64,000 nt of DNA, taken from positions 66,199 to 130,198 of the forward strand of contig JBGVNW010000041.1 in assembly GCA_045125935.1 (NCBI GenBank), written 5' to 3'. A model generated the notes under the pieces. That model did not search any database and was not told where the DNA came from. It saw nothing but the letters and a program-made list of their open reading frames with translations. Of the stretch, positions 5,266 to 28,171 are shown piece after piece. The position numbers and the translations under genes are program-made. Source of the DNA: Bacilli bacterium (GTDB lineage Bacteria > Bacillota_I > Bacilli_A > RF39 > UBA660). Within the stretch, counting starts at the first letter, position 1, and each line of letters begins with the position of its first letter.

Positions 5266-5304
5266 TTAAAAAAAACAAGAGATGACAAAAAGTCATCTCT
5301 TTCT

Positions 5305-6010: not shown

Positions 6011-6108
6011 TTACGCTGAAAAACACTTTACAATAAATGGGAAAAATGCCTTTAAATTTAAAAAAATATATGATATGATATACTCAGAGTATAATAAGGA
6101 GGAAACAA

Positions 6109-6516: not shown

Positions 6517-6549
6517 TTACACAAAATGAAATAAGAAGGAGAGAAATAT

Positions 6550-6834: not shown

Positions 6835-9800
6835 TGTCAGAAATGAATCATAATGTAATAAAAGTAAATACAGTTGTTGATAATATAAAGCAAAAAGCAA
6901 CAGAATATGATACAGCAATGTCCGAAATTGATACGCTAACTGATAAAATTATTAATGCTCATGGATTTGGGTTAGTTGGCGGCTTAAGTGCTGGGCAATA
7001 TTCTGCACAGCTAGCTGAATGTAAAGCTTCATGCGAATATTTAACCAATACAATTAGAAGTGTTCAATTAGAATTAATAAAATATTCTCAAAGTGAAGAA
7101 AGTTTAAATAGATTTTTAGGCTCAGTTACTAATGAGGAATGGGCTGCAATGGGATATTCTCCTGAAAATGTTCCAAAAGATATGGAAACTTTGATGTCGA
7201 ATGGTTCGGGTAATACTGAAAAGACAGTATCAAAACTAACCGGCGAATATGACCTTAGTTTTGGAGAAACTATTTTAGGATGGTTAGGAACAGGTGCTTC
7301 CGGTTTAGCAGAAGGTGTAGGACAATTTCTTGAAGCTGGAGTAGATTTGCTTGACATGACAGTAATCGGTGGCGGTGGTGCCCTATTGACACTTATAGCA
7401 ACTGGTTCAACGGAAAAAGCAAGTGAATATTTTGAACAAACCAAAGCTCGTGTTAGCAAGGATGTAGTAACTACTTGGTTTGATGACAATGTTTATTCAA
7501 CTGAATTAATTTCAAAATATGCTGAAGCATGTCCAAGTGGATTCAATATGACTAGAGGAATCACAAATGGAATTGGGTATTCAACCGCACTAATCGCAAC
7601 AGGAAGTTTCATCGGTGGTTTAGGTAGCGCATCAACGGCTACATCGGCTTCAACAAGTATGTTAGGAACTTTAAGAACTGCAGTTACAACCGGTAGAGGT
7701 TTAGGTATGGTAGCAACTGCAGGAGCAACTGGTTTTTCAACCGGTACAACAGATGCATGGGCAAATGGTGCAGGTACTGGAGAAGGACTTTTACAAGGTG
7801 TGGCAACAGGTGCATGGGAAGCAACACAATGGGCTGCAGGTATTGGTATAAATTCGGTGACAACAGGAGTTGGAGGATCAATATTGAATGTTACCGCAGA
7901 TACAGCTTTTGGTGCAGCAGAAGGATTTGTTCGTCCGGGAATATCAACACTAGGTAATGATACGACTTTTGAACAAGCATTTGAAGAAGCCGGAGGATGG
8001 GCCAATGTTGGGCAACAAGCAGCTGTCAGCGGTATTATGTCGGGAGCAGCTGAAATTGGTTCAGCAATTAAAACAAATATTCAAACCAGAGCGGCTACAG
8101 CAGATGGTTCAGGTGGAACCGGTCGTGTGGATGGTTCTGGTGTAACTGGTAGTGCAGATGGTTCAGGTGGAACCGGTCGTGTAGATGGTTCTGGTGGAAC
8201 TGGTAGTGCAGATGGTTCTGGTAGAATCAGTAGTGCAGATGGTTCAGGCGGAACTGGTAGTGCAGATGGTTCTGGTAGAATCAGTAGTGCAGATGGAACA
8301 CAAAGAGTAGCACCACAAGATGCGACAAATGTTGAATATAAAACCTCAGCAGACAGCTATGGTAGAACAACTTCTACAACAGAGTATGACTTAAACGGCA
8401 AACACATAAGTGAAGTAACAGGTCCTACTGGGCAAACAACACGTGTTACTACAGAAATAAATAACAATCAAACAATAACAACATCTCAACGTATAGATGC
8501 ATCAGGAAATGCAGTTGGAACAGGCAGAACAATCATAGAAACTGATCTTGGAAATGGTAAAGTTCATCGTCAAACAATAGATAGTTCCAATCAAGTAACA
8601 AACCAAATGATAACAACATCTACAACTCAAGGTGGAAATATAAAAGTTGAGACAAACACAACACTACCTTCAGGAAATACACAACAAAGAGTAGAAATAA
8701 TTAAAAATTCACAAGACAGTGCAGGAAATGCAGTTGTTACAAGAGATATAACACTAAAAGATAGTAATGGACAAACAACAAGTAAAATGCAATTAAAAGA
8801 TACTTTAGATATAAATAATCTTGATGCAAATGGTAATGCAACTAATTTAGCAACAAGTTTTAAACAAAAAGCTGGAAATAGCGAAGTTAAATCAAATATA
8901 ACATATGACAATAATGGAAATGTTACAAGTAAACAAATTAAAAACTTTACAGATGGTGCACTTGATACACTAGAAGATGTTACATATGCATTAGGTACAC
9001 ATCAAAGCTTAAAAGTAATGCAAGATGCACAAGGTAATTTTTTAAATAGTACTAACATAACAGCAAAATCAGATGGTACTTTTAATAAAGTAGAAACTTC
9101 AACTAATAGAGGCGGAAACAATACCGGTGGCTCTGGCGGTTCTGGTGGCTCTGGTGGCTCTGGTGGCTCTGGTGGCGGAACAGCATGGACTGAGTTATAT
9201 ACAGATGGCTATGGAAGAAAGTCATATGAAAGAACATATACAGATAGTTCAGGAAATAGCGTAAGAGAAGTACGCGGACCATCTGGAAAAATCACACAAT
9301 TGGTAACTGAAATAGATCCAACAACTGGAAGTCAAAAAATAACAACTAATTTAGTAGACTCTACAGGTAATATATTAAGTACACTAGGAGTTAAGAATTT
9401 GGTAGCTGATTCAGCAACTGGAACAGTAACTAGAACAGGAACATATACACTAGATGGTACAAGTAGAACATCAGCACAACAACGAATTACAACAACAGGA
9501 GATGCATTAAATGGCAGAAGAATTGTAGAAACAGATCTTGATGGTGGTACAACAAGAAGAACAATAGATACATCTACAACTACAGATGCAGCAACAGGAA
9601 ATACAACAACTACAAGAAATATAACAAGAGAAACTGGTGGCGAAGTAACAGGAAGAACCACAACAGCAGATGTAAAAAATTCTGCTGGAGAAATGCAGTC
9701 ATCTAGAACAGAGCATGTAAACCCAAATGATAGAAGTATAACATCAGAAACCCAATATCAAAATGGTCAAGTGGTTCATAAAGATATAGATACAGCAGTA

Positions 9801-11657: not shown

Positions 11658-12836
11658 TTATCTATACTTATAAGTCCTAGACTTTTCCATCGAAATATTA
11701 AGTAATATCCCAACTAGTAACATGTATGATAAAAGACTGGATCCCCCATAAGAAATAAATGGAAGAGTAATACCAGTAATAGGGAGTAGACCAACTGTCA
11801 TTCCAATATTTTGAACTTGTTGAAATAAAAGCATGCCTACAATACCAGCTAAAATATATTTATCTGTATCATCGATTTTTCTCTTCGCAAGTCTAATTAT
11901 ATTTATATCGAAATAAATAATAATTCCAAGTAGTATGATAACTCCTATAATACCAAAGTTTGATGCAAATACTGCGAATATAAAATCAGTCGATGACTCT
12001 GGAAAATAAATAGGTGTCTTATTAAACCCATGTCCAAATAATCCAGCAGATCCAATTGCCGCCAAGGCATTTTCTAATTGTAGTCCAGATCCTGTTTTCC
12101 AATCGAATAATCTATCTAATCGATAAAATATTGAAGTACCAAATATATCAATAAACAATTCTTCCTTAAAGAAGTAAATTCCTAAAACACTTCCTAAAAT
12201 TACCCCAATACAAGCAAATGCCAAGATAAACCATCCAACTCTAATACCCGATGAAAACATCATTACAAAATAGATTATTAAATAGATTATAACAGCCCCA
12301 GTATCAGGTTGTAAAAAGGTAAGTATTGATGGAATAAGTACAATAATTAAAGTCTTTAAAATAAACAAAAACTCTTGCCAAATAGTTGGATTTTTATAAT
12401 CACTTCTAAAATTATGTATCATTGTAGCTAAAACAAGCATTATAAATATCTTCATAAATTCACTTGGCTGAATACTACCAACTCCAGGAATTGTAAACCA
12501 ACATTTACTATTATTAATAGGTGTTCCAAATAATAATAATCCAACTAACAAAATATTACCCAGTACATATAAAAACCAAGTATGTCGATACAAAAACTCA
12601 TTCTTAACTTTGAGTATTATAACTACTAAAATACTTCCTACAATATACCAAATAGCTTGTTTTAATGCCAAATTACCTAAACTTTGTGAAGTATAAGTTA
12701 ATGCACTATATATTGTCATAATACTAATTATAGCCATTAAAAATATTGGAATAAGTATTTTAAAATTAATTTTATTATTTTTACTTTGTGTCATATTATC
12801 TTTACCTTTCATTTTTATTATACCAAAATCACTCAA
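11658..12836 (-). CDS. SEDS-family FtsW/RodA/SpoVE peptidoglycan polymerase
   Basis: About 10 TM segments. C-terminal ...GLLPITGITLPFISYGGSSLL... signature. The start may be one of the internal Met codons (MKGK.. or MTQSK..). Confidence 0.85.
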   Translation of the reverse strand: MSDFGIIKMKGKDNMTQSKNNKINFKILIPIFLMAIISIMTIYSALTYTSQSLGNLALKQAIWYIVGSILVVIILKVKNEFLYRHTWFLYVLGNILLVGLLLFGTPINNSKCWFTIPGVGSIQPSEFMKIFIMLVLATMIHNFRSDYKNPTIWQEFLFILKTLIIVLIPSILTFLQPDTGAVIIYLIIYFVMMFSSGIRVGWFILAFACIGVILGSVLGIYFFKEELFIDIFGTSIFYRLDRLFDWKTGSGLQLENALAAIGSAGLFGHGFNKTPIYFPESSTDFIFAVFASNFGIIGVIILLGIIIYFDINIIRLAKRKIDDTDKYILAGIVGMLLFQQVQNIGMTVGLLPITGITLPFISYGGSSLLSYMLLVGILLNISMEKSRTYKYR

Positions 12837-13258: not shown

Positions 13259-13663
13259 TTAGCATAATTCTATATACGTATCAGCAAGACATTTAACAGC
13301 ACCAACACATTTTAAGTCAATAGTAAAAAATTCATTAGTTCCTACAAAGTTATTTTCATCATTTAAGTAAAGTATTCTAAAAGTAGCACAACAATCATCT
13401 AATGATTCAATTCTAAATACTTCTGATTCTCTAGTTACACCATTAATTGTATAAGGAAAACGCCAAGGATTTCCAGTACAACAATTAAATAACATTAATG
13501 GTCTAGTATTATAGCAAACACTTGTACATACAGGTCCTAAATAAGGTTTATCACATCCAGTAGATTGACAACCATTATCAAAATCTTGTTTTTGTAACAT
13601 TAATATTCGTCTTAATAATTCACTTAAACATCCACAATCTCTTTCATTATTTTCATCACACAT
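13259..13663 (-). CDS. CotY/CotZ-like Cys-rich spore coat/crust protein
   Basis: Strong SD (AGAAAGGAGG). Cys pattern CGC...GC..TGC...FRIESLDDCCATFRIL...IDLKCVGAVKCL parallels B. subtilis CotY/CotZ (FFRVE..CCATL.., CFCAI.CL). Confidence 0.6.
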   Translation of the reverse strand: MCDENNERDCGCLSELLRRILMLQKQDFDNGCQSTGCDKPYLGPVCTSVCYNTRPLMLFNCCTGNPWRFPYTINGVTRESEVFRIESLDDCCATFRILYLNDENNFVGTNEFFTIDLKCVGAVKCLADTYIELC

Positions 13664-13678
13664 AATAAAACCTCCTTT

Positions 13679-14059
13679 CTATAAGTTTTCAACTACTGTA
13701 TCAACTACACATTTAATAGCACAAATACAACCTAAATTAACTGTTATAAAACTATTAGTAGAAATATAATCATCACCATCAACAGCAAGTACTCTTAAAG
13801 TTACACAATCATCAAATACTTTTTCAACTCTAAAAAAAGAACTACTTATCATATTTCCATTATCAATATAATTACTACTTAGTAGAGTACCATTCTTAGT
13901 ATATAAAGTAATAACCCTAGTATTATAACAAATTTGATTAATAGTAGGTCCTAAGTAAGGTTTAGTACAACCATCTTCTAAGCAATGTGTATTTACTGAA
14001 TTTTCTTGTAATAAATGAATTAATCTAAGTAAATTCCTAATACAATGATTAGTCCTCAT
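13679..14059 (-). CDS. CotY/CotZ-like Cys-rich spore coat/crust protein (paralog)
   Basis: Start moved to ATG 14059 (MRTNHC..) behind SD GAGGTGGAG. FFRVEKVFDDCVTLRVL and VNLGCICAIKCV blocks. Confidence 0.6.
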   Translation of the reverse strand: MRTNHCIRNLLRLIHLLQENSVNTHCLEDGCTKPYLGPTINQICYNTRVITLYTKNGTLLSSNYIDNGNMISSSFFRVEKVFDDCVTLRVLAVDGDDYISTNSFITVNLGCICAIKCVVDTVVENL

Positions 14060-14209
14060 AGTCTCCACCTCTTTATCTATTTCTAATATAAAGTATTCAA
14101 AACGTATTATTTTGTGTTTATAAATACCTATATAATTATATGTTTTATCACTAGAAATTAATCTCTTTATTTTTATCATTTTCTGTTATATAATTATAGT
14201 GGTGATAGA

Positions 14210-17442: not shown

Positions 17443-17784
17443 TTAATAAAAATTATTATTATTACCAAAATTAGAAAAACTATTTGGAGAAGTTGCTTGA
17501 GTTGAATAAGTGCCTTGTGTTGAATATGGTGTTTGTGTTGAGTAGATTGGTTGACTATAAGGAACTTGATAAACAGGCATTGGCATTGGGTAGAATCCTC
17601 CACCACCACAACATTGATTATTCATTTGGTTGTTATTAGCGATTCCATAACCTAATGCTGTACCAGCAAGACCTCCTACAAGAAAAGGTGCCAAAAAAAA
17701 TCTTTCACCATCTTGTGAATAACTAACAGAATTTCTGTACATAGTATTACTATTATTTGGTATAATATAATTGTGAGGGTACAT
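17443..17784 (-). CDS. hypothetical Q/N/Y/P-rich small protein with central hydrophobic segment
   Basis: ATG 17784 behind SD GGAGTGAG. MYPHNY...FLAPFLVGGLAGTALGYGIA...CCGGGGFYPMPMP...YSTQ repeats. Confidence 0.45.
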   Translation of the reverse strand: MYPHNYIIPNNSNTMYRNSVSYSQDGERFFLAPFLVGGLAGTALGYGIANNNQMNNQCCGGGGFYPMPMPVYQVPYSQPIYSTQTPYSTQGTYSTQATSPNSFSNFGNNNNFY

Positions 17785-17836
17785 ATATCTCACTCCTTTA
17801 CAGTATCTTATGTAATTAGAAAGAATAGGTGATAAT

Positions 17837-18946
17837 ATGAATACTGAAAAATTAAATAATTTGGCCAAAACAATAGTAAATTATTCGCTTCATTTAAAAG
17901 AAAATAGTAAAGTATTAGTTAGCTTTACTCCTGAAGCATCTCCACTAGTAGAAGAGTTAGTAAAAGAAGCTCAAGCAGTAAAAGCTATTATGATTTTAGA
18001 CATGTATAGTCCTAAATTAAATAGTTTATTAGCAGAAAAAAATACTGATGAAAGAATTGACTTAATTAAAGAAATAAGAGAGTTTGAAGTTGCTAATTAC
18101 GATGCATTTATTTCAATAAGATATACATATAATGATTATGAAACTAAGAATGTTCCTAAAGAGATGCGTATTAAATTAGGTTTAGCAACACAAGCAGCTG
18201 ATGACATTAGAATCAATCAAAGAGACTGGGTACTATTGAATTATCCATCTCCACAAGATGCTTTTAAAGCTAAAATGACCACAACAGAATTTAATGAATT
18301 TGCTTTAGATGTAATGACTGTTGATTATGCTAAAATGTCTGCAGATATCAAGCCTCTAAAGGATTTGATGGAGAAAACAGATAAAGTAAGAATCATCTCC
18401 CCTGGTACAGACTTAACTTTCTCAATTAAAGGACTACCAGCAGTACCTTGTACCGGAGATAAAAATATTCCTGATGGAGAACTTTACTCTGCCCCAGTAA
18501 AGGATAGTGTAAATGGAACTATTACTTATAATACTCCATGTCCATATAATGGAAATGTTTTCCACCATGTTTCATTGACTTTTGAAAATGGTAAGATAAT
18601 AAAGGCAACATGTGATGAAGATGATGATAAATTAAATGAAATATTTGATACAGATGAAGGTGCTAGATATGTTGGAGAGTTTTCTTTAGGATTCAATCCT
18701 AAAATTTTATATCCAATGGGCGATATCTTATATGATGAGAAAATTTTAGGAAGTCTACATTTTACACCAGGAAGATGTTATGCAGATTGTGACAATGGTA
18801 ATAGATCAAGTATTCACTGGGACATGGTTCTAATCCAAAGAGAAGACTTTGGTGGAGGAGAAATCTATTTTGATGATGTCCTAATTCGTAAAGATGGTAA
18901 ATTCGTTATAGATGAATTAAAAGTATTAAACTACGAACAAAAATAA
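17837..18946 (+). CDS. M29-family aminopeptidase (PepS/AmpS-like)
   Basis: 369 aa. NLAKTIVNYSL.., GDKNIPDGELYSAP, YVGEFSLGFNP and SIHWDMV blocks typical of thermophilic-metalloprotease M29 aminopeptidases. Confidence 0.8.
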   Translation: MNTEKLNNLAKTIVNYSLHLKENSKVLVSFTPEASPLVEELVKEAQAVKAIMILDMYSPKLNSLLAEKNTDERIDLIKEIREFEVANYDAFISIRYTYNDYETKNVPKEMRIKLGLATQAADDIRINQRDWVLLNYPSPQDAFKAKMTTTEFNEFALDVMTVDYAKMSADIKPLKDLMEKTDKVRIISPGTDLTFSIKGLPAVPCTGDKNIPDGELYSAPVKDSVNGTITYNTPCPYNGNVFHHVSLTFENGKIIKATCDEDDDKLNEIFDTDEGARYVGEFSLGFNPKILYPMGDILYDEKILGSLHFTPGRCYADCDNGNRSSIHWDMVLIQREDFGGGEIYFDDVLIRKDGKFVIDELKVLNYEQK

Positions 18947-18974: not shown

Positions 18975-19015
18975 AAATTAAAGATATATTATAAAAAAAT
19001 TGTATTATATATATA

Positions 19016-19260
19016 GGAACATTTAATAGTTAGGTGGAACCAAACTTCAAGAGAAGGGAGGTGATTATATGAATAAAAAAGATACTCTTATCTTTTTTCA
19101 AATAATAATTATCTACCTTTTAATATTATTACTATTTATAGTCTTAATATAAAAGAAAAGCCTAACTAAAATTTCTTTTAGTTAGGTAACCAATCATGGC
19201 AACACCTAACCAAGAAATATTAAGTGTTCCTATTTTATTTTATGAAGTTTCCTTCATCTA
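19016..19260 (+). repeat. type-I-toxin-like module, copy 1 of a 322-bp tandem duplication
   Basis: Near-identical to 19338-19582 over the 5' UTR and ORF, and more diverged in the 3' UTR loops. Confidence 0.9.
19069..19152 (+). CDS. 27-aa hydrophobic peptide (candidate type I toxin)
   Basis: MNKKDTLIFFQIIIIYLLILLLFIVLI*. SD GGGAGGTG lies 7 nt upstream. Confidence 0.5.
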   Translation: MNKKDTLIFFQIIIIYLLILLLFIVLI

Positions 19261-19294: not shown

Positions 19295-19337
19295 TTATAT
19301 TAAGGGAAAAACATAAATTATGCGTATCATATATATG

Positions 19338-19582
19338 GGAACATTTAATAGTTAGGTGGAACCAAACTTCAAGAGAAGGGAGGTGATTATATGAATAAAA
19401 AAGATACACTTATCTTTTTTCAAATAATAATTATCTACCTTTTAATATTATTACTATTCATAGTCTTAATATAAAAGAAAAGCCTAACTAAAATTTTATT
19501 CTAGTTAGGCAACCACCAAAGGTAACACCTAACAGGAAAAAATTAAGTGTTCCTATTTTTATTTTATGCAAGTTTCCTTGAC
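19338..19582 (+). repeat. type-I-toxin-like module, copy 2
   Basis: Second unit of the 322-bp duplication. Confidence 0.9.
19391..19474 (+). CDS. 27-aa hydrophobic peptide (candidate type I toxin), identical peptide
   Basis: Same 27-aa product as 19069-19152, with two synonymous differences. Confidence 0.5.
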   Translation: MNKKDTLIFFQIIIIYLLILLLFIVLI

Positions 19583-19617: not shown

Positions 19618-19646
19618 AATAAAATACCGTTATCGGAACAAAAATA

Positions 19647-19675
19647 TTGACTTTTAGTACCGTCTACGGTATAAT
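19647..19675 (+). promoter_or_regulatory. sigmaA-type promoter of the HTH-pseudoFic/kinase-array operon
   Basis: TTGACT (19647-19652)-17 nt-TATAAT (19670-19675). SD GAGGTGG and ATG 19696 follow. Confidence 0.7.
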
Positions 19676-19695
19676 AAGCAGCCAGAGGTGGTACT

Positions 19696-20595
19696 ATGGA
19701 CTTTATGACTACAAAAGAGGCTACAGAAAAGTGGAAAATAAGTGAAAGACGTATTAGAAAATTATTAAAAGACGGAAGAATTATCGGAGCAATTAAAGTT
19801 GGAAATAGTTGGAGCATCCCAACAAATGCCACTAAGCCTATTGATAAACGTAGTATCAAATATGAAGATAAAAAAATAATTATAAATCTTAGTCAAATAT
19901 TTTTTGCTAAAGTAGATAATTTAAAAGACCAAATTAAGAAAAACGCAAAATATGCTGATGAACAATTTCTAATTGAGTGGATTTACAATGATAGCAAATT
20001 AGAAAGAAATACATTAACAAAAGATGAAATAAAAATAGTCATAAATAATATTACCGTAGGTGGAAAATCAATAGAAGAGCACCTTGAAATAATTAATTAT
20101 AAAAATGCTATTAAATACTTAATTAATTCTGTTGATAAAAACATTAAAATAACTGAAAATGAGATAAAAACCATTCATCACATAGTAAGTCAAAATATTG
20201 ATAATGAAAATACAAATACATATAGAACAGAACAAGAAAATAACGATATAGATCCTACATTAATTCCAGAAATAATGTTAAAGTTAATTTCTAATTATAA
20301 TGAGAAAACATCACATGTCATAATAAAAGCTGTTATCTTACATAGTGAATTAATTAAGCTCTCACCATTTAAGGATAATAACTTAAAGACCGCTTTACTT
20401 TTAATGAACTTAATTTTTATGAATAATGGCTACCAACCAATAATTATAAAAGAAGAGTATAAATCAAATTATTTATCACAACTAAAAAATTCTCAAATAA
20501 CAGGCGATTATACTAAGTTGATAAAATTAATTTTAAAAATAGAAGAACAGTGCTTAGAAGATGAGATAAACAAAATGGAGGTTGGTGATAAATAA
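19696..20595 (+). CDS. HTH (excisionase/MerR-like) + Fic-fold protein with degenerate active-site motif
   Basis: N-terminal MTTKEATEKWKISERRIRKLLKDGRIIGAIKVGNSWSIP. Fic-core landmarks SKLERNTLTKDEI, EEHLEIINYKNA, IKTIHHIV and ILHSELIKL. The motif position reads SPFKDNNLKTAL (20362-20397) where HxFx(D/E)GNGRxxR is expected. Confidence 0.75.
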   Translation: MDFMTTKEATEKWKISERRIRKLLKDGRIIGAIKVGNSWSIPTNATKPIDKRSIKYEDKKIIINLSQIFFAKVDNLKDQIKKNAKYADEQFLIEWIYNDSKLERNTLTKDEIKIVINNITVGGKSIEEHLEIINYKNAIKYLINSVDKNIKITENEIKTIHHIVSQNIDNENTNTYRTEQENNDIDPTLIPEIMLKLISNYNEKTSHVIIKAVILHSELIKLSPFKDNNLKTALLLMNLIFMNNGYQPIIIKEEYKSNYLSQLKNSQITGDYTKLIKLILKIEEQCLEDEINKMEVGDK

Positions 20596-21347
20596 TGCGA
20601 CTAATGCCAAACATAAGTCTGACAGAAAAGCAAGTTACATCACTTCTTGAAAATAATAGATTTGACTTTGGTGGTGAAGCTATAATCTGTCGCAATGAAA
20701 ATCCCAATACTTTATATAAAATCTTTGTTTCACAGGATGCGAAAGAACCAATAGCGATGACAAAAAATAAAGAGATAAAAATAGCATTGCTTCATCAATT
20801 AGAACTTCCAAATAGTACCATACCACTTAGTACCATAAGTATGGATGGTGTACTAGTGGGATATGAAATGACAAATGCACGTGGTTATAAACCATTATTT
20901 ATACCAGATTTGACAAGGGATTCAACAATTGAAGCACTGAAAAAAGCCAAAACAACACTAGAATATTTTGCTTACAAGGATGTGACATATGGTGATGTCA
21001 AAAATGATAATTTATTAATAAATCCCCAAACTGGTGAAATTATTTTCTGCGACATGGACAATGTACGTATTGGTTCAAGAGAAATAGATGTTGCAGGATA
21101 TGAATTACAGTATTTTAAGCAGTGTTATGGAACAATAGATGAAAAATCAGATGCTTATATGCATAATTTATTAACACTAGAAATGTTAAATTATCGCTAC
21201 GTCGAGTACGTGCAAGATATCATTGAAATGATGAAAACTGGAGTAAAACCACAAGGTTATGAAGAAAAAGCTGAATATACACTAAAAAGTATGCTTAATC
21301 CCAGAGATTTTGATGGTAAATATATAATTCAATATGTCAAAAGATAG
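20595..21347 (+). CDS. minimal protein-kinase-like paralog, array member 1 of 9
   Basis: GGEAIIC, LYKIF, KNKEIK, VGYEM, VTYGDVKNDNLLIN, FCDMDN, DAYMHN, GKYIIQYVKR. The start overlaps the upstream stop (TAATG). Confidence 0.8.
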   Translation: MRLMPNISLTEKQVTSLLENNRFDFGGEAIICRNENPNTLYKIFVSQDAKEPIAMTKNKEIKIALLHQLELPNSTIPLSTISMDGVLVGYEMTNARGYKPLFIPDLTRDSTIEALKKAKTTLEYFAYKDVTYGDVKNDNLLINPQTGEIIFCDMDNVRIGSREIDVAGYELQYFKQCYGTIDEKSDAYMHNLLTLEMLNYRYVEYVQDIIEMMKTGVKPQGYEEKAEYTLKSMLNPRDFDGKYIIQYVKR

Positions 21348-21357
21348 GAGTAAAATT

Positions 21358-22140
21358 ATGAAAAGATTACCAAATATAGAAATAGACCCAAGATGTTTAA
21401 ATAGATTATTTATGAGTCAATTAACAAGTGGTGGAGAAGCTATCGTTTGTCGAAGCTTTCAACCTAATACCTTATTTAAAATCTGTGCTGAGGCAAGTGT
21501 TCAAAGGTATTGTGATTCCTTCGGAGTACCATTTCGCCTAGATTTAATTGAAATGTCTGATAACAAGTTCGAAAAAATTAAAAGATTATATGAAATGCAA
21601 TTAGAACATAGCGTAAAGCCAGTAAGTACACTAAGCATGAATGGTCGATTAATAGGGTATGAAATGACTTATGATAAAGATGACAAGTCATTACATAATA
21701 GCCAATTATCTCATGAAGATTTAATTAACATCCTAGAACAAAGCAGAAACATCTTAGAATATTATGCTCAAAATGATATAACATATGGTGATGTTAATGC
21801 TTTTAACGTTTTAGTAAATAGCGGTACTAAACAAGTAAAATTTTGTGATGTTGATAACATGCGTATTGGAACACTTCCTATCGATGTAAAAGAAAAGAAT
21901 TCCACAATATACGATTTACTTGGTGGTAAGGAGGCCTATCTTGATGCTTACATGCATAATATAATGACTCTTTATGAATTTGAAAGTGATAAATTTGGCT
22001 TTTTATTTAAACCAGTAAGTGAAATTGTAAAAGAAGATTATTCACAGTATTTAACAGAAGAATCAAGAGAAATATTAACTAGTATGGAAGAACCAAAAAC
22101 ATTTAATGGTGAATATATAATTCAATATGTAAAAAAATAA
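21358..22140 (+). CDS. minimal protein-kinase-like paralog, array member 2
   Basis: Start at MKRLPNIEI behind TAGGAG. GGEAIVC, LFKIC, DNKFEK, IGYEM, ITYGDVNAFNVLVN, FCDVDN, DAYMHN, NGEYIIQYVKK. Confidence 0.8.
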   Translation: MKRLPNIEIDPRCLNRLFMSQLTSGGEAIVCRSFQPNTLFKICAEASVQRYCDSFGVPFRLDLIEMSDNKFEKIKRLYEMQLEHSVKPVSTLSMNGRLIGYEMTYDKDDKSLHNSQLSHEDLINILEQSRNILEYYAQNDITYGDVNAFNVLVNSGTKQVKFCDVDNMRIGTLPIDVKEKNSTIYDLLGGKEAYLDAYMHNIMTLYEFESDKFGFLFKPVSEIVKEDYSQYLTEESREILTSMEEPKTFNGEYIIQYVKK

Positions 22141-22149
22141 GGTGATAAA

Positions 22150-22872
22150 ATGCAAAGGATTCCCAACATAAAACTGACACAAGATGATTTTGAAAAATTA
22201 TTAGAGCATAAGATAATAGGTTCTGGTAGTGAGGCAACAATTTGTCGAACTGAAAAACAAAATACCGTATACAAAATTTTTTGTATTGGTAAGAAAGTAT
22301 TTCCAATGCCAGATAATAAAGTAAGAAAAATAGATAAATTATATCAAATGTCGTTAGAGCATATAACTAGCCCAATAAGTACAATAAGCTTAGATGGGAC
22401 ATTAATTGGCTATGAAATGATTTATGATTCAGAAGATAAAACCTTTAATCCTTTCGCACTAAGTAATTCAGAAGTAATTCATTTTTTAAAAGGCACTAAG
22501 GATATTTTAGAACAGCTAGCAAGTAAAGACATAACATATGGTGATGTGGCTGGTCGTAATATTTTGATTAATCATCGTACAGGAACAATAAAATTTTGTG
22601 ATATTGATAACATGCGCGTTGGAGAATATCCAATAGATCTTATCGGTAACACATTACAAAAATACACCAAAGTTCGAGGTGTTGATGCTGCAACAGATGC
22701 CTATATGCACAGTATAATGACATTAAATTCTTTCGACTTGGATGAAGATGAATGTAGTCAAGAAGAATTTGCTTGGTATTTTACGAGAGAAGGTAGAAAA
22801 ATTCTTCATCAAATAAGAGAAAAAACAGCATACAATGGTGAATACATAGTTCAATATGTTAAAAAGAAATAG
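22150..22872 (+). CDS. minimal protein-kinase-like paralog, array member 3
   Basis: GSEATIC, VYKIF, DNKVRK, IGYEM, ITYGDVAGRNILIN, FCDIDN, DAYMHS, NGEYIVQYVKKK. Confidence 0.8.
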   Translation: MQRIPNIKLTQDDFEKLLEHKIIGSGSEATICRTEKQNTVYKIFCIGKKVFPMPDNKVRKIDKLYQMSLEHITSPISTISLDGTLIGYEMIYDSEDKTFNPFALSNSEVIHFLKGTKDILEQLASKDITYGDVAGRNILINHRTGTIKFCDIDNMRVGEYPIDLIGNTLQKYTKVRGVDAATDAYMHSIMTLNSFDLDEDECSQEEFAWYFTREGRKILHQIREKTAYNGEYIVQYVKKK

Positions 22873-22880
22873 GTGATAAT

Positions 22881-23612
22881 ATGACACGACTTAAAAATAT
22901 TGAGTTTTCTGAAAATGAAGTTCATAGATTAATAAAAAAATCTTTCTTCAGCAGTGGTGGAGAAGCAGTAATTTGTCGTACTAATAATCCTAATACACTA
23001 TATAAAATTTTTATCAAAGGAACTATGTATAACACTATAGCGATGAGCGAAAATAAATTAAGAAAACTAGAAAGAATTCATGAAATGGAACTAAAGGGTT
23101 GTGTAAGACCTATACAAACAATATCAAGTCAAGGAAAACTAATTGGTTATGAAATGACATACGATCCAAATGATATAAGATTCTTTCCTGGTTATTTCAA
23201 ACGTAGTGAAGTAGTAAGAAAACTGAAAGAAACAAGAAATATCTTACAATACTTTGCGGACCACGATATAACATATGGCGATATTGCCTTGCGAAATATT
23301 TTATTTAACAAGCATACCGGTGAAGTGAAATTCTGTGATATGGACAATGTAAAAATAGGCGAATATCCAATGGATATAATTCCCACTAGATTAAGAGATT
23401 ATCATGAAATTTGTGGTATTGATGATAAAACAGATGCTTACATGCATAATCTCCTTACACTAGATGCTTTCGGTTTAAGACTATATTACTCTGATAGAGA
23501 TGACATAAGTGAAGAATTTAAAGGAAAAGCCATACCAATAGTTGAATCAATGAAAGAGCCAGAAAACTTTCAAGGTGAATATATAATCCAATATATAAAG
23601 AAAAAAGAGTGA
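22881..23612 (+). CDS. minimal protein-kinase-like paralog, array member 4
   Basis: GGEAVIC, LYKIF, ENKLRK, IGYEM, ITYGDIALRNILFN, FCDMDN, DAYMHN, QGEYIIQYIKKK. Confidence 0.8.
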   Translation: MTRLKNIEFSENEVHRLIKKSFFSSGGEAVICRTNNPNTLYKIFIKGTMYNTIAMSENKLRKLERIHEMELKGCVRPIQTISSQGKLIGYEMTYDPNDIRFFPGYFKRSEVVRKLKETRNILQYFADHDITYGDIALRNILFNKHTGEVKFCDMDNVKIGEYPMDIIPTRLRDYHEICGIDDKTDAYMHNLLTLDAFGLRLYYSDRDDISEEFKGKAIPIVESMKEPENFQGEYIIQYIKKKE

Positions 23613-23616
23613 TAAA

Positions 23617-24381
23617 ATGAAAAATTTACCAAACATTAATTTTACATTAAAAGAAATAGAAGAAATAGTTAAAAGAGATCACATTGTAGGTGGAGAAGCA
23701 GGTATCTATGAAACGGGAAACCAATTAACTTTATATAAAATATTTTGTAAGGCTGAAGAAATACGAAATTCAAATTCATATTCTTTTAACTCAAGTCCCA
23801 TAACAACGATGAGCTATAACAAACTACGAAAACTAGAAAAATTATATCAAATGCAACTAGAACATAGTGTAAGACCGATAAGCACTATTAGTGTAGCTGG
23901 CGAATTGGTAGGCTATGAAATGACAAGAGATCCTAAAGATCAAGTCATAACTTCCGTAAATCTATCAAGGTCTGAATTGATTCACTATCTAGAACAAACC
24001 AAAAATATTTTAGAATATTTTTCTCATCACGATATTATTTATGGCGATGTTGCAAAAAGAAACATTTTAATCAATCACAAAACAAGAACAGCAAAGTTTT
24101 GTGATATGGATAATATAAAGCTTGGAAGTTATGGAATAGATGTAAAATCATGGGAATTAATTTCTTATACAATAGAAAGAGACGGTCTTGATCAAAAAAC
24201 AGATGCCTACATGCACAGTTTAATGACTTTAACCGGTTTAGATATTGACATGGATTTATGTGTACTACAAAATGAATACTTCCATAAACATTTTACTCCA
24301 CCAGCATTTGATGTTATCGAAGGAATCGGAAATCCCAAAAACTACAATGGCGAATACTTAGTACAATACGTAAAAAAATAA
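23617..24381 (+). CDS. minimal protein-kinase-like paralog, array member 5
   Basis: GGEAGIY, LYKIF, YNKLRK, VGYEM, IIYGDVAKRNILIN, FCDMDN, DAYMHS, NGEYLVQYVKK. Confidence 0.8.
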   Translation: MKNLPNINFTLKEIEEIVKRDHIVGGEAGIYETGNQLTLYKIFCKAEEIRNSNSYSFNSSPITTMSYNKLRKLEKLYQMQLEHSVRPISTISVAGELVGYEMTRDPKDQVITSVNLSRSELIHYLEQTKNILEYFSHHDIIYGDVAKRNILINHKTRTAKFCDMDNIKLGSYGIDVKSWELISYTIERDGLDQKTDAYMHSLMTLTGLDIDMDLCVLQNEYFHKHFTPPAFDVIEGIGNPKNYNGEYLVQYVKK

Positions 24382-24399
24382 AAAGAAAGAGGTGAAATT

Positions 24400-25146
24400 A
24401 TGTTATCAATTCCCAATATAATACTTACAAAAGAAGAATATCAACAGTTAATTAAGAACGAACAAATGCGTGGAGGTGAAGCTATAATCTCACCAAGCGG
24501 CAATCCAAATACAAGATATAAACTATTTATGAATCAAGCACATTATGAAAGCCCGATGAATGAAAATAAAACAGTCAAAGTAATTGAACTATATAGAAGA
24601 AATATTCCTTATTTGGTACAACCTCTAAGTACAATCAGTTACAATGGTAAAATGGTTGGTTATGAAATGACTTTTGATAGACATGATAAAAGCCTTGAAT
24701 CACTATCACAGCTATCAAGAAAACAATTAATAGAAATTTTAAAGAAGTCAAAAGAAATTCTTGAACATCTAGCCAGTCAAGACATAACATATGGCGATGT
24801 AACCGCAGACAATATCTTAGTAAATATAAAAACAGGAAGAGTAAGTTTTTGTGATATAGATAATATGCGTGTTGGTGCAAATCCAATCGATATAAAAGGT
24901 TTTAGTTTATCTCGTTATTATGGAAGAGTTGGCCAAATAGATGAAAAAGCCGATGCCTACATGCACAATCTATTAACAATAAAAAAATTACATGCTCCAA
25001 GTAAATATGAATCAGAAATTATAAAAGACTTAGAAAAAGGAATCTTTCCTACAAAGTTTAAACAAACAGCCAGACCAATATTCGAAAGTATGGCAAATCC
25101 AGAAAACTTTACAGGTGAATATGTAATTCAACACGTAAAAAGATAA
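24400..25146 (+). CDS. minimal protein-kinase-like paralog, array member 6
   Basis: GGEAIIS, RYKLF, ENKTVK, VGYEM, ITYGDVTADNILVN, FCDIDN, DAYMHN, TGEYVIQHVKR. Confidence 0.8.
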   Translation: MLSIPNIILTKEEYQQLIKNEQMRGGEAIISPSGNPNTRYKLFMNQAHYESPMNENKTVKVIELYRRNIPYLVQPLSTISYNGKMVGYEMTFDRHDKSLESLSQLSRKQLIEILKKSKEILEHLASQDITYGDVTADNILVNIKTGRVSFCDIDNMRVGANPIDIKGFSLSRYYGRVGQIDEKADAYMHNLLTIKKLHAPSKYESEIIKDLEKGIFPTKFKQTARPIFESMANPENFTGEYVIQHVKR

Positions 25147-25149
25147 AGA

Positions 25150-25179
25150 TTGAAGAAATAGCAAAAATATGATATAATA
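25150..25179 (+). promoter_or_regulatory. internal promoter between array members 6 and 7
   Basis: TTGAAG (25150-25155)-18 nt-TATAAT (25174-25179) with TG at 25170-25171 (extended -10). This is the only gap over 20 nt in the array. Confidence 0.5.
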
Positions 25180-25204
25180 TGCTCACTAATGGGGGATGGT
25201 TAGT

Positions 25205-25963
25205 ATGAAAAGAATGCCTAATATTACTTTTTCAAGGGAAAGTTTAGAGGAGATAACGTATACAGAAAGATTTAGTAAAGGTGGAGAAGCAATTATCTGC
25301 CTAAGTAATAAGCCAAATTCACTATACAAAATTTTTATTAATCCATATACTGGCGAAATAATTGACATGTCAGACAATAAATTTAAGAAAATAGCAACCA
25401 TTTACCAAATGGGACTTGACTATAGTGTAAGACCATTAAGTACCATAAGTATGGACGGAAGACTAGTTGGTTATGAAATGAGTTGTAATCCATTACATGT
25501 TTCTATGAACGAAATATCATTAACTCCTCAACAATTAATTGAAATTTTAAAACGTACCAAAGATGCTTTAGAATATTTTGAATCAAAAGATATAACCTAT
25601 GGCGATGTCAAAAATAACAATATTTTAATAAATAGACATACAGGACAAATAGAATTTTGTGATATGGACAATATCAGATTAGGAGAAAATCCAATAGACC
25701 TAATGGGAAAAGATTTAAGACAATATGTTGCAAAAAATGGAGTTCTTGCTAACGCTGATGCTTATATGCATAATTTATTTGCACTAAAAGAACTAGGCTT
25801 TCCAACTAAATATACAACTAGCGAAGGTGTTATTATGACCCTTGAAAAAGGTGAATACCCAACTGAATTTGAAAAATTTGCTCATCCAATTTTTGAGGGT
25901 ATGGTAAACCCAGAATCATTTAATGGTGAGTATGCCATTCAATATATTAAAAAGGGACGATAA
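25205..25963 (+). CDS. minimal protein-kinase-like paralog, array member 7
   Basis: Start at MKRMPNITF behind GGGGGA. GGEAIIC, LYKIF, DNKFKK, VGYEM, ITYGDVKNNNILIN, FCDMDN, DAYMHN, NGEYAIQYIKK. Confidence 0.8.
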   Translation: MKRMPNITFSRESLEEITYTERFSKGGEAIICLSNKPNSLYKIFINPYTGEIIDMSDNKFKKIATIYQMGLDYSVRPLSTISMDGRLVGYEMSCNPLHVSMNEISLTPQQLIEILKRTKDALEYFESKDITYGDVKNNNILINRHTGQIEFCDMDNIRLGENPIDLMGKDLRQYVAKNGVLANADAYMHNLFALKELGFPTKYTTSEGVIMTLEKGEYPTEFEKFAHPIFEGMVNPESFNGEYAIQYIKKGR

Positions 25964-25964
25964 C

Positions 25965-26684
25965 ATGAGAAGAATTACAGATATCAAATTAACAGAAAAA
26001 GAATTTGCAAATATTAAGCAAAGATTTTGCTTTGACTATGGCAGTGAAGCAGATATTTATACAACCGACAAACCAAACACTTTATATAAAATATTCACTG
26101 GTCGTCACGGTATGTCAGAAAATAAATTACGAAAGATTGAAAGACTGTATCAAATGTCACTAGAGCATAGTGTAAAGCCACTTAGCACCATAAGTTGTAA
26201 CGGAAAATTAGTTGGTTATGAAATGACCTATGATAGAAAAGACCAAGAGTTTAGATATGTAATAAATAAATTAGATCGTGCTCAAAAGATTTATTGGTTA
26301 GAGCAAACAAGAGATATTTTAGAATATTTTGCATCACAAGATATAACATTTGGCGATGTTGCCAGTAGAAATATTCTGATCAATCCCCAGAGTGGTGAGG
26401 CTAAATTTTGTGATATAGATAATATTCGTTTAGGTGAATACCCGGTTGATATAACATCAGAATCTTTAAGTCAATACTGTAGGGTTCGTGGCGTAGATGA
26501 AGAAATAGATGCCTTTGGGCATAATCTAATGACTGTGCATGCCTTATATATATCCCCTTGGGGCGACTTACCAGCATTGAGTCAAATTAAAATGAGAGGT
26601 ATGAAAGTTTATCGTAGTTTACAAAAACCAGAAAAATTTAATGGCGAGTATATAATTCAATATGTAAAAAAGATAGGAAGATAA
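25965..26684 (+). CDS. minimal protein-kinase-like paralog, array member 8
   Basis: Start at MRRITDIKL, 1 nt after the upstream stop. GSEADIY, LYKIF, ENKLRK, VGYEM, ITFGDVASRNILIN, FCDIDN, DAFGHN, NGEYIIQYVKK. Confidence 0.8.
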   Translation: MRRITDIKLTEKEFANIKQRFCFDYGSEADIYTTDKPNTLYKIFTGRHGMSENKLRKIERLYQMSLEHSVKPLSTISCNGKLVGYEMTYDRKDQEFRYVINKLDRAQKIYWLEQTRDILEYFASQDITFGDVASRNILINPQSGEAKFCDIDNIRLGEYPVDITSESLSQYCRVRGVDEEIDAFGHNLMTVHALYISPWGDLPALSQIKMRGMKVYRSLQKPEKFNGEYIIQYVKKIGR

Positions 26685-26685
26685 T

Positions 26686-27438
26686 ATGTCAACAAAAAGA
26701 ATACCAAATGTTGAGTTAACAATAGATGAATTTTTTGCTCTAGAAGACGAAGATAAATTTGCTCAGGGCGGAGAAGCTATTATTTTAAAAACAGAAAGGC
26801 CTAATACTCTTTATAAGTTCTTTAGAGATCAAAATGGCAACTTTATTGATATGCCTGATAATAAATTTAGAAAAATCATAGCATTATATAACTTAAACTT
26901 AAATTATTCTGTAAAACCATTAAGTACAGTAAGTGTTAATGGTCATTTAGTAGGTTATGAAATGACATATAATCCCCAAAGTATTCAGTTTAAGAAAGCT
27001 GGATTAGATCGCGCTAATAAAATAGAAGTTTTAAAAAGAACTAAAGAGATTTTAGAATACTTCGCAACTCAAGATATAACATATGGCGATGTCAAAAGTA
27101 ATAATATTTTAATTGATAGAGTAACAGGAGAAATAGAATTTTGTGATATGGATAATATTCGTATTGGAACATATCCTATGGATCTGGTAGTAGAATATGT
27201 ACAACCCTTTGAAAAATGTGGTAAAATTGAACTGTGTGATGCCTATATTCATAATTTGATGACATTACAACAATTAGGATTTCCTAATAATTATCCAACA
27301 TTTAAAGAGGTTGCAAGAACACTTGCAAGAGAAATATATCCAACAGGATTTTCCAAAGAAGCAAAGGAAGTTTTTGAAAGTATGATAATTCCAAGAAAAT
27401 TCAATGGAGAATATGTAATTCAATACGTAAAAAAATAG
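26686..27438 (+). CDS. minimal protein-kinase-like paralog, array member 9
   Basis: GGEAIIL, LYKFF, DNKFRK, VGYEM, ITYGDVKSNNILID, FCDMDN, DAYIHN, NGEYVIQYVKK. Confidence 0.8.
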   Translation: MSTKRIPNVELTIDEFFALEDEDKFAQGGEAIILKTERPNTLYKFFRDQNGNFIDMPDNKFRKIIALYNLNLNYSVKPLSTVSVNGHLVGYEMTYNPQSIQFKKAGLDRANKIEVLKRTKEILEYFATQDITYGDVKSNNILIDRVTGEIEFCDMDNIRIGTYPMDLVVEYVQPFEKCGKIELCDAYIHNLMTLQQLGFPNNYPTFKEVARTLAREIYPTGFSKEAKEVFESMIIPRKFNGEYVIQYVKK

Positions 27439-27451: not shown

Positions 27452-28171
27452 ATGGAACGTTTACAAAAAGTAATCACACAAGCAGGAATTGCATCAAGAA
27501 GAAAAGCAGAAGAATTAATTACACAAGGAAAAGTAAAAGTAAATGGTCAAACAGTTACAGAATTAGGTACTAAAGTATCAGACAAAGACCATATTGAAGT
27601 TGAAAATAAACTAATAGAAAAAGAATTAAAAGAATATTATTTACTAAATAAACCTCGTGGTGTAGTAACAACAACATCAGATGATAAAAATAGAAAAACA
27701 GTTATTGATTTAATCCCAACCAGCGCTAGAATATATCCGGTAGGAAGATTAGATTATGATACAACAGGTGCCTTATTACTAACAAATGATGGTGATTTTG
27801 CCAATATTTTAATGCATCCAAAACATAAAATAGAAAAAGTTTATATGGCAAAAGTAAAAGGAATCATAAAAGGTGAACAAATAAATAAACTAAAAGATGG
27901 TGTTGAAATAGAACCAGGAGTAGTGGTAAGGGGAACAAGAGTAAAACTAAAGAAAACTGATCCTAAATCAAATACAAGTAGGGTTCAAATTACTATTACT
28001 GAAGGAAAAAATCATCAAGTAAAGAAAATGTTTGAAGCAGTTGACTTTGAAGTAATAAAACTAAAAAGAGAAAAAATTGCCTTCTTCGATTTAAAAGATC
28101 TTCAATCAGGAGAATATCGTAAACTAACACCAAAAGAAGTAAGTAAAGTATTTAGTTTAGAAACAAAATAA
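27452..28171 (+). CDS. rluB: 23S rRNA pseudouridine synthase, RsuA/RluB family
   Basis: S4 domain (RLQKVITQAGIASRRKAEELI) and catalytic GRLDYDTTGALLLTNDG. 239 aa. Confidence 0.85.
   Translation: MERLQKVITQAGIASRRKAEELITQGKVKVNGQTVTELGTKVSDKDHIEVENKLIEKELKEYYLLNKPRGVVTTTSDDKNRKTVIDLIPTSARIYPVGRLDYDTTGALLLTNDGDFANILMHPKHKIEKVYMAKVKGIIKGEQINKLKDGVEIEPGVVVRGTRVKLKKTDPKSNTSRVQITITEGKNHQVKKMFEAVDFEVIKLKREKIAFFDLKDLQSGEYRKLTPKEVSKVFSLETK

Follow-up and report, generated by a model that had tools for sequence, protein, structure and literature searches.

What would a bacterium do with nine consecutive, diverged copies of a very small kinase-like gene placed behind a gene for a degenerate Fic protein? 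The question is raised by a locus in a 64,000-nucleotide (nt) stretch of DNA (hereafter, the window) from a Bacilli bacterium (GTDB lineage RF39, UBA660; assembly GCA_045125935.1, contig JBGVNW010000041.1, positions 66,199 to 130,198 of the forward strand). A gene for a 299-amino-acid (aa) protein that combines a helix-turn-helix (HTH) domain with a degenerate Fic domain is followed there, head to tail and on the same strand, by nine paralogs, K1 to K9 (20595-27438). The K family, which has no name so far, is a branch of the protein-kinase-like superfamily restricted to one lineage; its closest relatives there are the Hanks-type (eukaryote-like) kinases. As to its role, we consider it about an even call that the locus encodes active minimal Hanks-like protein kinases with diverged specificities, placed under an autoregulated pseudo-Fic repressor or adaptor.

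The Fic gene, the array, the conserved downstream neighbour of the family and a dispersed tenth member are laid out in the window as follows.

19696-20595, plus strand: HTH plus degenerate Fic protein, 299 aa; HTH at residues 3-42; motif SPFKDNNLKTA at residues 223-233 (nt 20362-20394); flap strand deleted
20595-21347, plus strand: K1, 250 aa; catalytic loop DVKNDN, K-type; start overlaps the Fic stop
21358-22140, plus strand: K2, 260 aa; catalytic loop DVNAFN, N-type
22150-22872, plus strand: K3, 240 aa; catalytic loop DVAGRN, AxR-type
22881-23612, plus strand: K4, 243 aa; catalytic loop DIALRN, AxR-type
23617-24381, plus strand: K5, 254 aa; catalytic loop DVAKRN, AxR-type; long beta3-alphaC insert
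24400-25146, plus strand: K6, 248 aa; catalytic loop DVTADN, T-type
25205-25963, plus strand: K7, 252 aa; catalytic loop DVKNNN, K-type; the copy modelled by AlphaFold2
25965-26684, plus strand: K8, 239 aa; catalytic loop DVASRN, AxR-type
26686-27438, plus strand: K9, 250 aa; catalytic loop DVKSNN, K-type
27452-28171, plus strand: rluB, S4 plus pseudouridine synthase domains
59307-60020, minus strand: K10, 237 aa; catalytic loop DVAARN, AxR-type

The open reading frame (ORF) listing and the independent gene calls on an identical Logan contig agree on the nine products of 239-260 aa, as a reading made earlier from the sequence alone (hereafter, the sequence-only reading) had proposed, and the ORF of K2 could begin earlier, at 21334. 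The same reading had taken nine copies for the whole family, a count that K10 extends to ten; K10 adjoins an AbiJ-like gene and a Fic gene with a near-canonical motif, and groups with the singletons L016_1 and L017_1 (related loci are denoted here by L and a number). From the Fic gene to K9, the junctions measure, in order, -1, 10, 9, 8, 4, 18, 58, 1 and 1 nt, with 13 nt between K9 and rluB; this is the spacing described previously, -1 to 18 nt except for one 58-nt gap, and the genes have the operon layout that had been proposed. The first junction is indeed TAATG, a 1-nt overlap of the Fic stop and the K1 start, and this overlap is conserved in L020, L022 and L028. Each array gene is preceded by its own Shine-Dalgarno sequence, as claimed, but the recurring GGTGATAAnATG, noted earlier at the junctions, had to be rejected as a motif specific to the array: it is a general Shine-Dalgarno sequence plus spacer here, and is also found before the M29 aminopeptidase gene, rluB and other genes.

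Although K2-K9 are only 37-46% identical to K1, there is no doubt that the nine proteins form one family: each matches the family hidden Markov model (HMM) with an E-value of 1e-94 to 1e-111, far beyond chance, and the shared motif blocks noted previously are all present, in the same order, with 37 invariant columns in the nine-way alignment.

To which fold, and to which branch of it, does this family belong? The AlphaFold2 model of K7, built from a 47-sequence alignment, has a predicted local distance difference test score (pLDDT) of 95.9 and a predicted template modelling (TM) score of 0.91. In a Foldseek search of the PDB, its top matches are IRAK4, Hck, Lck, Src and Fyn (E ~1e-10, TM-scores of 0.59-0.67), and all 50 of the 50 listed matches are protein kinases; those found in the viral library BFVD are likewise protein kinases. 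The kinase fold suspected from the motifs is thus borne out. A profile of the nine copies compared with PDB sequences matches NIK/MAP3K14, CDKL3, ERK, VRK1, PKA and ASK1, and the alignment of ityGDVaarNiLi...kfCDi of the K proteins with ilHGDVKADNVLL...alCDF of NIK pinpoints the catalytic Asp, the Asn of the catalytic loop and the Asp at the DFG position (the motif reads CDF in NIK). The Lys, Asp, Asn and Asp residues singled out previously are the ones that align with NIK, and all four are present in 100% of the 268 full-length family members in which residue conservation was counted.

The sequence-only reading had leaned towards the APH/choline-kinase, RIO/Bud32 and Kdo-kinase branches, and here the evidence points elsewhere. 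In a Pfam scan of the 47 members of the alignment, Pkinase was matched by 46 (best E 7.9e-9) and PK_Tyr_Ser-Thr by 34, with RIO1 (E 0.11), Kdo (E 0.037) and Choline_kinase (PF01633, E 0.063) matched by one member each and no match to APH (PF01636) at E <= 1 in any of the 47; no RIO chain is among the 60 best PDB profile matches. Hence the claim of a kinase fold stands, with the branch being similar to the eukaryotic-like protein kinases (ePKs) rather than to APH, RIO or Kdo kinases. The nine window copies themselves score 14.8-30.1 bits against Pkinase, K7 being the best at 30.1, under the gathering threshold of 31.7; K5 fits PK_Tyr_Ser-Thr (22.6 bits, cutoff 23.1) better than Pkinase, and some members of the family carry a Pkinase flag in precomputed tables. 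No family was found above threshold for the window K proteins in scans against Pfam, NCBIfam, PHROGs and PADLOC; for CotS, CotH and HipA there was no Pfam or NCBIfam match, and PADLOC 2.0 gave only catalytic-loop matches of about 50 residues (best E 2.7e-5). The K proteins are accordingly covered by no curated family or defence model, and in the literature we found no description of the K family or of a Fic-kinase array arrangement.

The conservation of the active site is exceptionally strong across the 268 members. E28 of the G(G/S)EA loop, K42 of beta3, K62, D134, N139, D153 and D155 are conserved in 100%, K59 and N156 in 99%, and an alphaF-type Asp (in DAYxHN) in 85%; the (D/E)NKxxK motif at the start of alphaC and the C-terminal GxY(I/V)(I/V)xY tail are invariant. 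From CDxDN (153-156) to the conserved PxD (165) there are about 11 residues, as opposed to the 20-35 residues from DFG to APE that are expected of an ePK. The earlier description of the proteins as catalytically competent holds for the core Lys, Asp, Asn and Asp, which are invariant, and does not hold for the conserved alphaC Glu, which is absent. With no paralog that lacks the core residues, the K proteins are, judging from their sequences, very probably active enzymes with a non-canonical set of active-site residues.

Within this constant framework, the catalytic loop falls into four classes. DxKxxN is found in K1, K7 and K9 as well as in both single-copy species, and is therefore probably ancestral; Dx(A/S)xRN characterises K3, K4, K5, K8 and K10; DVNxxN is the class of K2 and DVTxxN that of K6. 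The class is constant within each group of orthologs. Elsewhere, the sequences vary most in two places: the insert between beta3 and alphaC, which adds as many as 26 residues, and the C-lobe, at columns 101-110, 171-180 and 201-230.

How widespread is the family, and how does it evolve? It comprises 311 clusters at 90% identity, and 304 representatives at 50% identity have E <1e-10; the best-scoring 150 representatives are all shorter than 280 aa, mostly 230-275 aa, the shorter ones being fragments, and the few that come with a source name are labelled 'hypothetical protein'. A scan of GTDB with one genome per species, based on two exact peptide patterns that distant members would escape, detected the family only in uncultured gut metagenome-assembled genomes (12 loci, about 11 species), labelled Bacilli, Bacillota, 'Mycoplasma', 'Tenericutes', plain 'bacterium' and, in one case, Muribaculaceae. 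A tblastn search of 50,697 phage and 72,556 plasmid records together with an IMG/VR scan yielded no relatives.

In 10 of the 12 scan loci, the K genes are located in the interval from a histidine-kinase gene to rluB, with the M29 aminopeptidase gene directly before the array in 7 of these 10, as in the window. Copy number in this slot, which the sequence-only reading had proposed to survey in related genomes, ranges from 1 to 7 (1, 1, 2, 3, 3, 5, 5, 6, 6 and 7 across the 10 loci), with 9 in the window, and L008 and L011 contain one broken copy each. The two species with a single copy have an RluB that shares only about 60% identity with that of the window, and in them one or two uncharacterised genes separate K from rluB; a distant member (E 2e-31) is located directly upstream of rluB. 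According to a neighbour-joining tree and reciprocal BLAST, orthologs follow the same order from one array to the next: L020 and L028 contain K1-K6 and K9 in the window order, at 57-84% identity, K7 and K8 being extra in the window. In the same genome pair as compared for the K genes, the flanking proteins are about 90% identical, and the K genes have 2.5-6 times as many nonsynonymous substitutions per site (dN) as M29, rluB and GT2. The ratio of dN to the synonymous value (dS) is 0.12-0.28 for every K copy compared, a range that is rough given dS values of ~0.6-1.5, near saturation, and that indicates purifying selection on all of these copies.

The accessory or conflict island in which the array had been placed is difficult to reconcile with these observations. 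The fixed slot upstream of rluB across related species and the colinear orthologs argue that the array is not an accessory island and is, to that extent, a core feature of this lineage. The K family behaves as an old, vertically inherited multigene family that is subject to birth-and-death dynamics and stable sub-functionalisation. Separately, the array of L009, from a related species, is interrupted between its sixth and seventh K copies by a pair of ORFs of 322 and 353 aa that lack annotation and any Pfam match (7855-9882).

The history of the Fic gene is different. The protein matches Pfam Fic (PF02661) with an E-value of 4.9e-10 (40.6 bits against a cutoff of 24), its HTH_17 match is below threshold (24.1 bits, cutoff 27), and it also matches the PADLOC PDC-S04 and SoFic models. 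In an AlphaFold2 model (pLDDT 79), the top Foldseek match is human FICD/HYPE (TM-score 0.64-0.70, 28-30% identity). The degeneracy noticed previously was confirmed by alignment with canonical relatives. The catalytic motif HxFx(D/E)GNGRxxR is lost, with S-P-F-K-D-N-N-L-K-T-A in place of the canonical H-P-F-x-D-G-N-G-R-T-S. The canonical homologues (more than 100 clusters listed) are mostly 308 aa long, about 50% identical, and retain an intact HPFxDGNGRTSR. The array-linked subgroup (about 12 clusters of 293-300 aa, 54-59% identical) has instead the motif (S/N/C)PFK(D/N)NNxK, a six-residue deletion (VTIKGA) relative to the canonical relatives, a deletion of 7-12 residues in the linker after the HTH, and loss of the Ser of the inhibitory motif (S/T)xxxE(G/N). 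The VTIKGA segment is presumably the target-docking flap, a beta-hairpin in known Fic structures. The HTH is nearly invariant across the canonical and degenerate groups, and the dN/dS of the Fic gene is ~0.2.

The degenerate Fic gene heads the K array in all three contexts that were inspected (L020, L022 and L028, with seven K copies each). A representative of the canonical form, found at five places (L023-L027), belongs to an integrase - HTH-Fic - 1067-aa cassette next to secA. Among the 12 genome-collection loci (about 11 species), no Fic relatives were detected, their presence being limited to the nearest relatives of the window. This absence implies a capture specific to one sublineage and runs counter to the suggestion that Fic and the kinase array make up a conserved two-family system. 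The Fic gene derives from the canonical HTH-Fic of the integrase-linked cassette, brought along its own promoter and operators, and has been retained in this sublineage under purifying selection as a pseudo-enzyme. We also considered the 1067-aa partner as a possible ancestor of the kinases and rejected it, given the lack of any Pfam or PADLOC match and of similarity to the K HMM. In L023-L027, the cassette occupies 4613-10142, downstream of secA, as a small integrative unit with a split integrase, and its 308-aa HTH-Fic and 1067-aa protein possibly represent an unrecognised two-gene conflict system.

The promoter region retains a record of this origin. The relevant sites, with one more candidate inside the array, are the following.

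19625-19638, plus strand: operator candidate O1, TACCGTTATCGGAA, TACCG-N4-CGGTA with 1 mismatch, just upstream of the -35 hexamer
19647-19675, plus strand: promoter TTGACT-17-TATAAT, 11/12, the best plus-strand match in the region
19658-19671, plus strand: operator candidate O2, TACCGTCTACGGTA, a perfect palindrome in the promoter spacer that overlaps the -10 hexamer
25150-25178, plus strand: candidate internal promoter TTGAAG-17-TATAAT with TG extension, 10/12, a consensus match only, in the 58-nt gap

The promoter named in the sequence-only reading is thus present, in DNA of ~29% G+C where promoter-like strings as such occur at chance frequency (57 in the region versus 57.9 in shuffled sequences). 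Neither hexamer varies among the window, L020, L022 and L028, and in the latter three loci O1 is the perfect palindrome TACCGACAACGGTA. With at most one mismatch, TACCG-N4-CGGTA occurs twice in the 64 kb, against 0.17 expected, both times in the Fic promoter. The canonical 308-aa HTH-Fic genes of L023-L027 have the same hexamers, the same 17-nt spacing and the palindrome at the same position in the spacer; of the 34 fetched loci, the 9 with an HTH-Fic promoter all contain the exact palindrome and the other 25 all lack it. Over the 145 nt that precede the Fic start codon, the window, L020, L022 and L028 share 93% identity; the Fic proteins of these lineages are only 58-60% identical. From this co-inheritance alone we infer that the HTH of the Fic family binds the palindrome and autoregulates. 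No terminator-like sites were found inside the array, before rluB or before GT2, so the candidate Fic circuit would control K1-K9 and probably also rluB and GT2. The candidate internal promoter precedes K7 and K8, the copies that are absent from L020 and L028.

Taken together, these observations lead us to propose the following mechanism. K1-K10 would be active, cytoplasmic, single-domain ATP-dependent phosphotransferases, in which the beta3 Lys would hold ATP beneath the G(G/S)EA loop, the Asp of YGD would serve as the catalytic base, and Mg would be held by the Asn and the CDxDN Asp. With an activation segment of about 11 residues, such enzymes would probably be active at all times, with no switch by phosphorylation of the loop. 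A single copy in the fixed slot upstream of rluB would have given rise to nine through old tandem duplications followed by sub-functionalisation, in which the chemistry was kept and divergence affected the class of the catalytic loop and those C-lobe segments that face the substrate. The copies would most likely phosphorylate different protein or peptide substrates on Ser/Thr, those of the AxR type possibly on Tyr. In one sublineage, the array gained at its head an HTH-Fic gene from a mobile element, complete with promoter and operator, and this gene then lost the catalytic His, the anion-binding nest and the flap. The resulting pseudo-Fic, predicted to be translationally coupled to K1, may act as an autoregulated DNA-binding repressor or adaptor of the whole operon, with transcription reading through into rluB.

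Several observations weigh against this scheme. The Pfam scores of the window copies are below threshold and cover mainly the catalytic loop. No counterpart of the alphaC Glu is apparent: columns 59-70 are never more than 26% acidic and nothing is conserved mid-helix, the one conserved acidic position nearby being 57, at the helix N-terminus (82% D/E). E28, K59, K62, D155 and N156 lack ePK counterparts, so the chemistry may differ from simple protein phosphorylation. The small size and the absent activation loop would equally suit small-molecule kinases. The near-saturated dS loosens the estimates of selection, and co-inheritance is the one line of evidence for the binding of the pseudo-Fic to the palindromes. 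Finally, the neighbours of singleton and distant members (a Flg_new surface protein, ASCH, an ABC transporter, PNP, HD, AI-2E transport) are inconsistent and give no pointer to a substrate.

The strongest competitor, tentative as it is, builds on the size argument: the paralogs could be a battery of small-molecule kinases, comparable to APH, Mph and choline-kinase-type enzymes, that act on related antibiotics, xenobiotics, diet or host sugars, nucleosides or amines, with duplication widening the substrate range. Besides the length of ~250 aa and the mere 11 residues from CDxDN to PxD, this interpretation is favoured by the extra invariant polar residues around the acceptor site, by the lack of a conserved partner or substrate gene nearby and by the invariant D-x-D-N after beta8, which resembles the ID-x-E of the choline-kinase motif. 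What argues for protein substrates is that the family is closest to protein kinases in both sequence and structure (no APH match and 1 of 47 for Choline_kinase; all 50 listed Foldseek matches) and that most of its members have the alphaF-type Asp, an ePK feature. A role in defence, as an anti-phage or anti-mobile-element battery in which each kinase would sense or modify a different invader protein, with the pseudo-Fic as sensor or regulator, after the manner of Stk2- or PD-T4-6-like abortive infection, appears unlikely to us. K10 does lie beside an AbiJ-like gene (PDC-S32, 2e-87) and a Fic gene (PDC-S72, 1.5e-77), the Fic gene of the array comes from an integrase-linked cassette and matches the PDC-S04 and SoFic models, copy number varies from 1 to 9 with broken copies in L008 and L011, and the K genes outpace their flanking genes in dN by a factor of 2.5-6. 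However, the PADLOC matches are generic ones to the catalytic loop (E >= 2.7e-5), the phage, plasmid and IMG/VR collections contain no relatives of the family, the locus is fixed, vertically inherited and colinear even between species with RluB proteins of only ~60% identity, it is apparently co-transcribed with the housekeeping gene rluB, gene-wide dN/dS stays at 0.12-0.28 and Fic is missing in most species. The framing of the sequence-only reading, Fic and kinases as one system in a conflict island, is largely not borne out, and we rank a defence battery below active protein kinases under pseudo-Fic control. Less probable still is a fixed innate-immunity repertoire whose paralogs would recognise invader or host proteins, with Tyr-like AxR copies, gated by a domesticated pseudo-Fic repressor that would have swapped its original 1067-aa partner for K1; Tyr-kinase-like copies with an AxR loop would be, to our knowledge, unprecedented among bacterial Hanks-type kinases.

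We give very little credence to a HipBA-like toxin-antitoxin system, in which K1 or all K proteins would be growth-arresting toxins and the HTH-pseudo-Fic the autoregulating antitoxin. The arrangement is reminiscent of such systems, with an upstream HTH gene that overlaps K1 by 1 nt in the window, L020, L022 and L028, palindromic candidate operators in the promoter and type I toxin-like modules immediately upstream. Yet in 12 of the 12 genome-collection loci the K genes occur without a Fic relative, usually right after M29, from which it follows that the family is not intrinsically toxic and that this explanation fails; furthermore, the motifs of K1 do not differ from those of the other copies, and the K proteins are unrelated to HipA. 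Just as improbable is a CotS- or CotH-like role in the spore coat, previously raised as CotS-like kinases. Two CotZ-like genes (6 kb upstream), a SpoVE/FtsW-family gene and a histidine-kinase gene, beside which no response-regulator gene was seen, are located 3-8 kb upstream of the array, and the same holds for L028. Nevertheless, the idea fails on sequence, there being no APH/CotS or CotH similarity, and the sigma-A-like promoter, the apparent co-transcription with rluB and the presence of the family in other contexts also speak against it.

Between the M29 gene and the Fic promoter, the window contains two copies of a module resembling type I toxin-antitoxin systems, which are 92% identical over their best-aligned 198-nt core and 78% over the adjoining 74 nt. 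Each encodes a 27-aa hydrophobic peptide, MNKKDTLIFFQIIIIYLLILLLFIVLI, whose strong Shine-Dalgarno sequence is sequestered in a 31-nt inverted repeat; the minus-strand promoter-like sites and terminator hairpins make an antisense RNA possible.

18977-19241: first module; peptide at 19069-19152 (stop codon included), minus-strand promoter-like site at 19294-19266, terminator hairpin at 19186-19161
19299-19564: second module; peptide at 19391-19474 (stop codon included), minus-strand promoter-like site at 19617-19589, terminator hairpin at 19510-19482

An Rfam search detected no known RNA in these modules. L022 and L028 each have one copy at the corresponding position (88% nucleotide identity), and in L028 the peptide ORF contains a stop codon.

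Other features of the window include a pair of genes beside K10 that resembles a defence island, a third Fic gene that, with the ORF after it, looks like what is left of an integrated element, along with genes related to the spore coat and cell wall.

126-632: MreD
4927-5265: DUF4176 gene
5448-5909: IS200-type transposase
6834-11255: ORF of 1473 aa, no Pfam match
11658-12836: SpoVE/FtsW-family gene
13259-13663 and 13679-14179, minus strand: adjacent CotZ-like genes
17443-17868, minus strand: small Q/Y/P-rich ORF with one hydrophobic segment
37107-38096: RhuM plus Fic, directly after polC
38290-39723: ORF with integrase-like and MutS_I-like matches, following RhuM-Fic
56586-56921: truncated class II aminoacyl-tRNA synthetase fragment, just upstream of the Fic/AbiJ pair
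57387-58235: Fic, motif HPFREGNTRT, first gene of the pair (PADLOC PDC-S72, 1.5e-77)
58347-59195: AbiJ_NTD4 protein, second gene of the pair (PDC-S32, 2e-87)

A similar RhuM-Fic gene follows polC in L003. The DUF4176 gene and the transposase lie upstream of the 1473-aa ORF, and DUF4176 genes accompanied by large proteins without annotation are found again at this position in L002, L003 and L028. The Q/Y/P-rich ORF is found at the same position in most related loci; together with the CotZ-like, SpoVE/FtsW and MreD genes, it points to an organism that has a wall and possibly forms spores, and not to a wall-less mollicute.

Kinase folds, Fic pseudo-enzymes and tandem gene families are all familiar when taken one by one. 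What is new is an unnamed kinase branch with its own invariant set, a ten-copy expansion with ortholog-stable loop classes and the acquisition, along with promoter and operator, of an HTH-Fic gene at the head of the array. The invariant set is unusual in that it combines a Glu in the Gly-rich loop, NKxxK in alphaC and CDxDN with the lack of an alphaC Glu, in a family so far known only from uncultured low-GC gut Bacilli, with up to ten genes within a 64-kb window. The ortholog-stable split of the catalytic loop (Ser/Thr-like, Tyr-like and two more) offers a natural experiment on the specificity of kinases after duplication, and the Fic gene clearly illustrates how an enzyme of a mobile element can be taken over, promoter and operator included, and turned into a pseudo-enzyme with a probable regulatory role. 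The value of the locus is that of a defined target for biochemistry rather than of a solved system.

Among known systems, the Hanks-type kinases (Pkinase, PF00069), of which small stand-alone bacterial representatives such as B. subtilis PrkD/YbdM exist, share with the K proteins the bilobal fold, the beta3 Lys, the D-x-x-x-x-N loop, the DFG-position Asp and the alphaF-type Asp. The K proteins differ in that the nine window copies fall under the Pfam threshold, the alphaC Glu is absent and the activation segment is ~11 residues long, as well as in the G(G/S)EA Gly-rich loop with an invariant Glu, (D/E)NKxxK, CDxDN in place of DFG and the GxY(I/V)(I/V)xY tail. Eukaryotic Tyr kinases have the loop HRDLAARN and Ser/Thr kinases HRDLKxxN, and the K family is similarly split into Dx(A/S)xRN and DxKxxN classes, each conserved among orthologs; we regard Tyr specificity as conjectural, and we know of no eukaryotic counterpart of the DVNxxN and DVTxxN classes.

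In the effector kinases OspG, NleH and HopBF1, the kinase domain is pared down to roughly 200-300 aa and lacks a normal activation loop; these proteins are secreted as type III effectors by Gram-negative pathogens. K6 gives a weak NCBIfam match to NleH (E 0.041). The K genes, in contrast, are chromosomal core genes of gut bacteria of the Gram-positive type, are arranged in arrays, and encode proteins with no secretion signal discernible by eye; minimal bacterial effector kinases are reviewed in PMC9950578. The defence kinases Stk2, PD-T4-6 and MADS mad6 resemble the K proteins as stand-alone, Ser/Thr-kinase-like enzymes with weak catalytic-loop matches, but these matches are generic (E >= 2.7e-5, ~50 residues) and the K array is syntenic, neither mobile nor patchy. 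With HipBA, the locus has in common an HTH gene upstream of, and overlapping, a kinase gene and palindromic candidate operators in the promoter; it differs in that the K proteins are not of the HipA family and occur mostly without an HTH partner in other species.

The pseudo-Fic has the Fic fold of the Class II AMPylases (human FICD/HYPE and C. elegans Fic-1; TM-score 0.64-0.70) and departs from canonical Fic proteins through the change of His to Ser and of GNGR to NNLK, the removal of six flap residues and the loss of the inhibitory-motif Ser. Its closest relationship is to the 308-aa HTH-Fic family, with which it shares ~50% identity, a nearly invariant HTH and the same promoter and palindrome; where the canonical gene is followed by that for the 1067-aa protein, the pseudo-Fic gene is followed by the kinase array.

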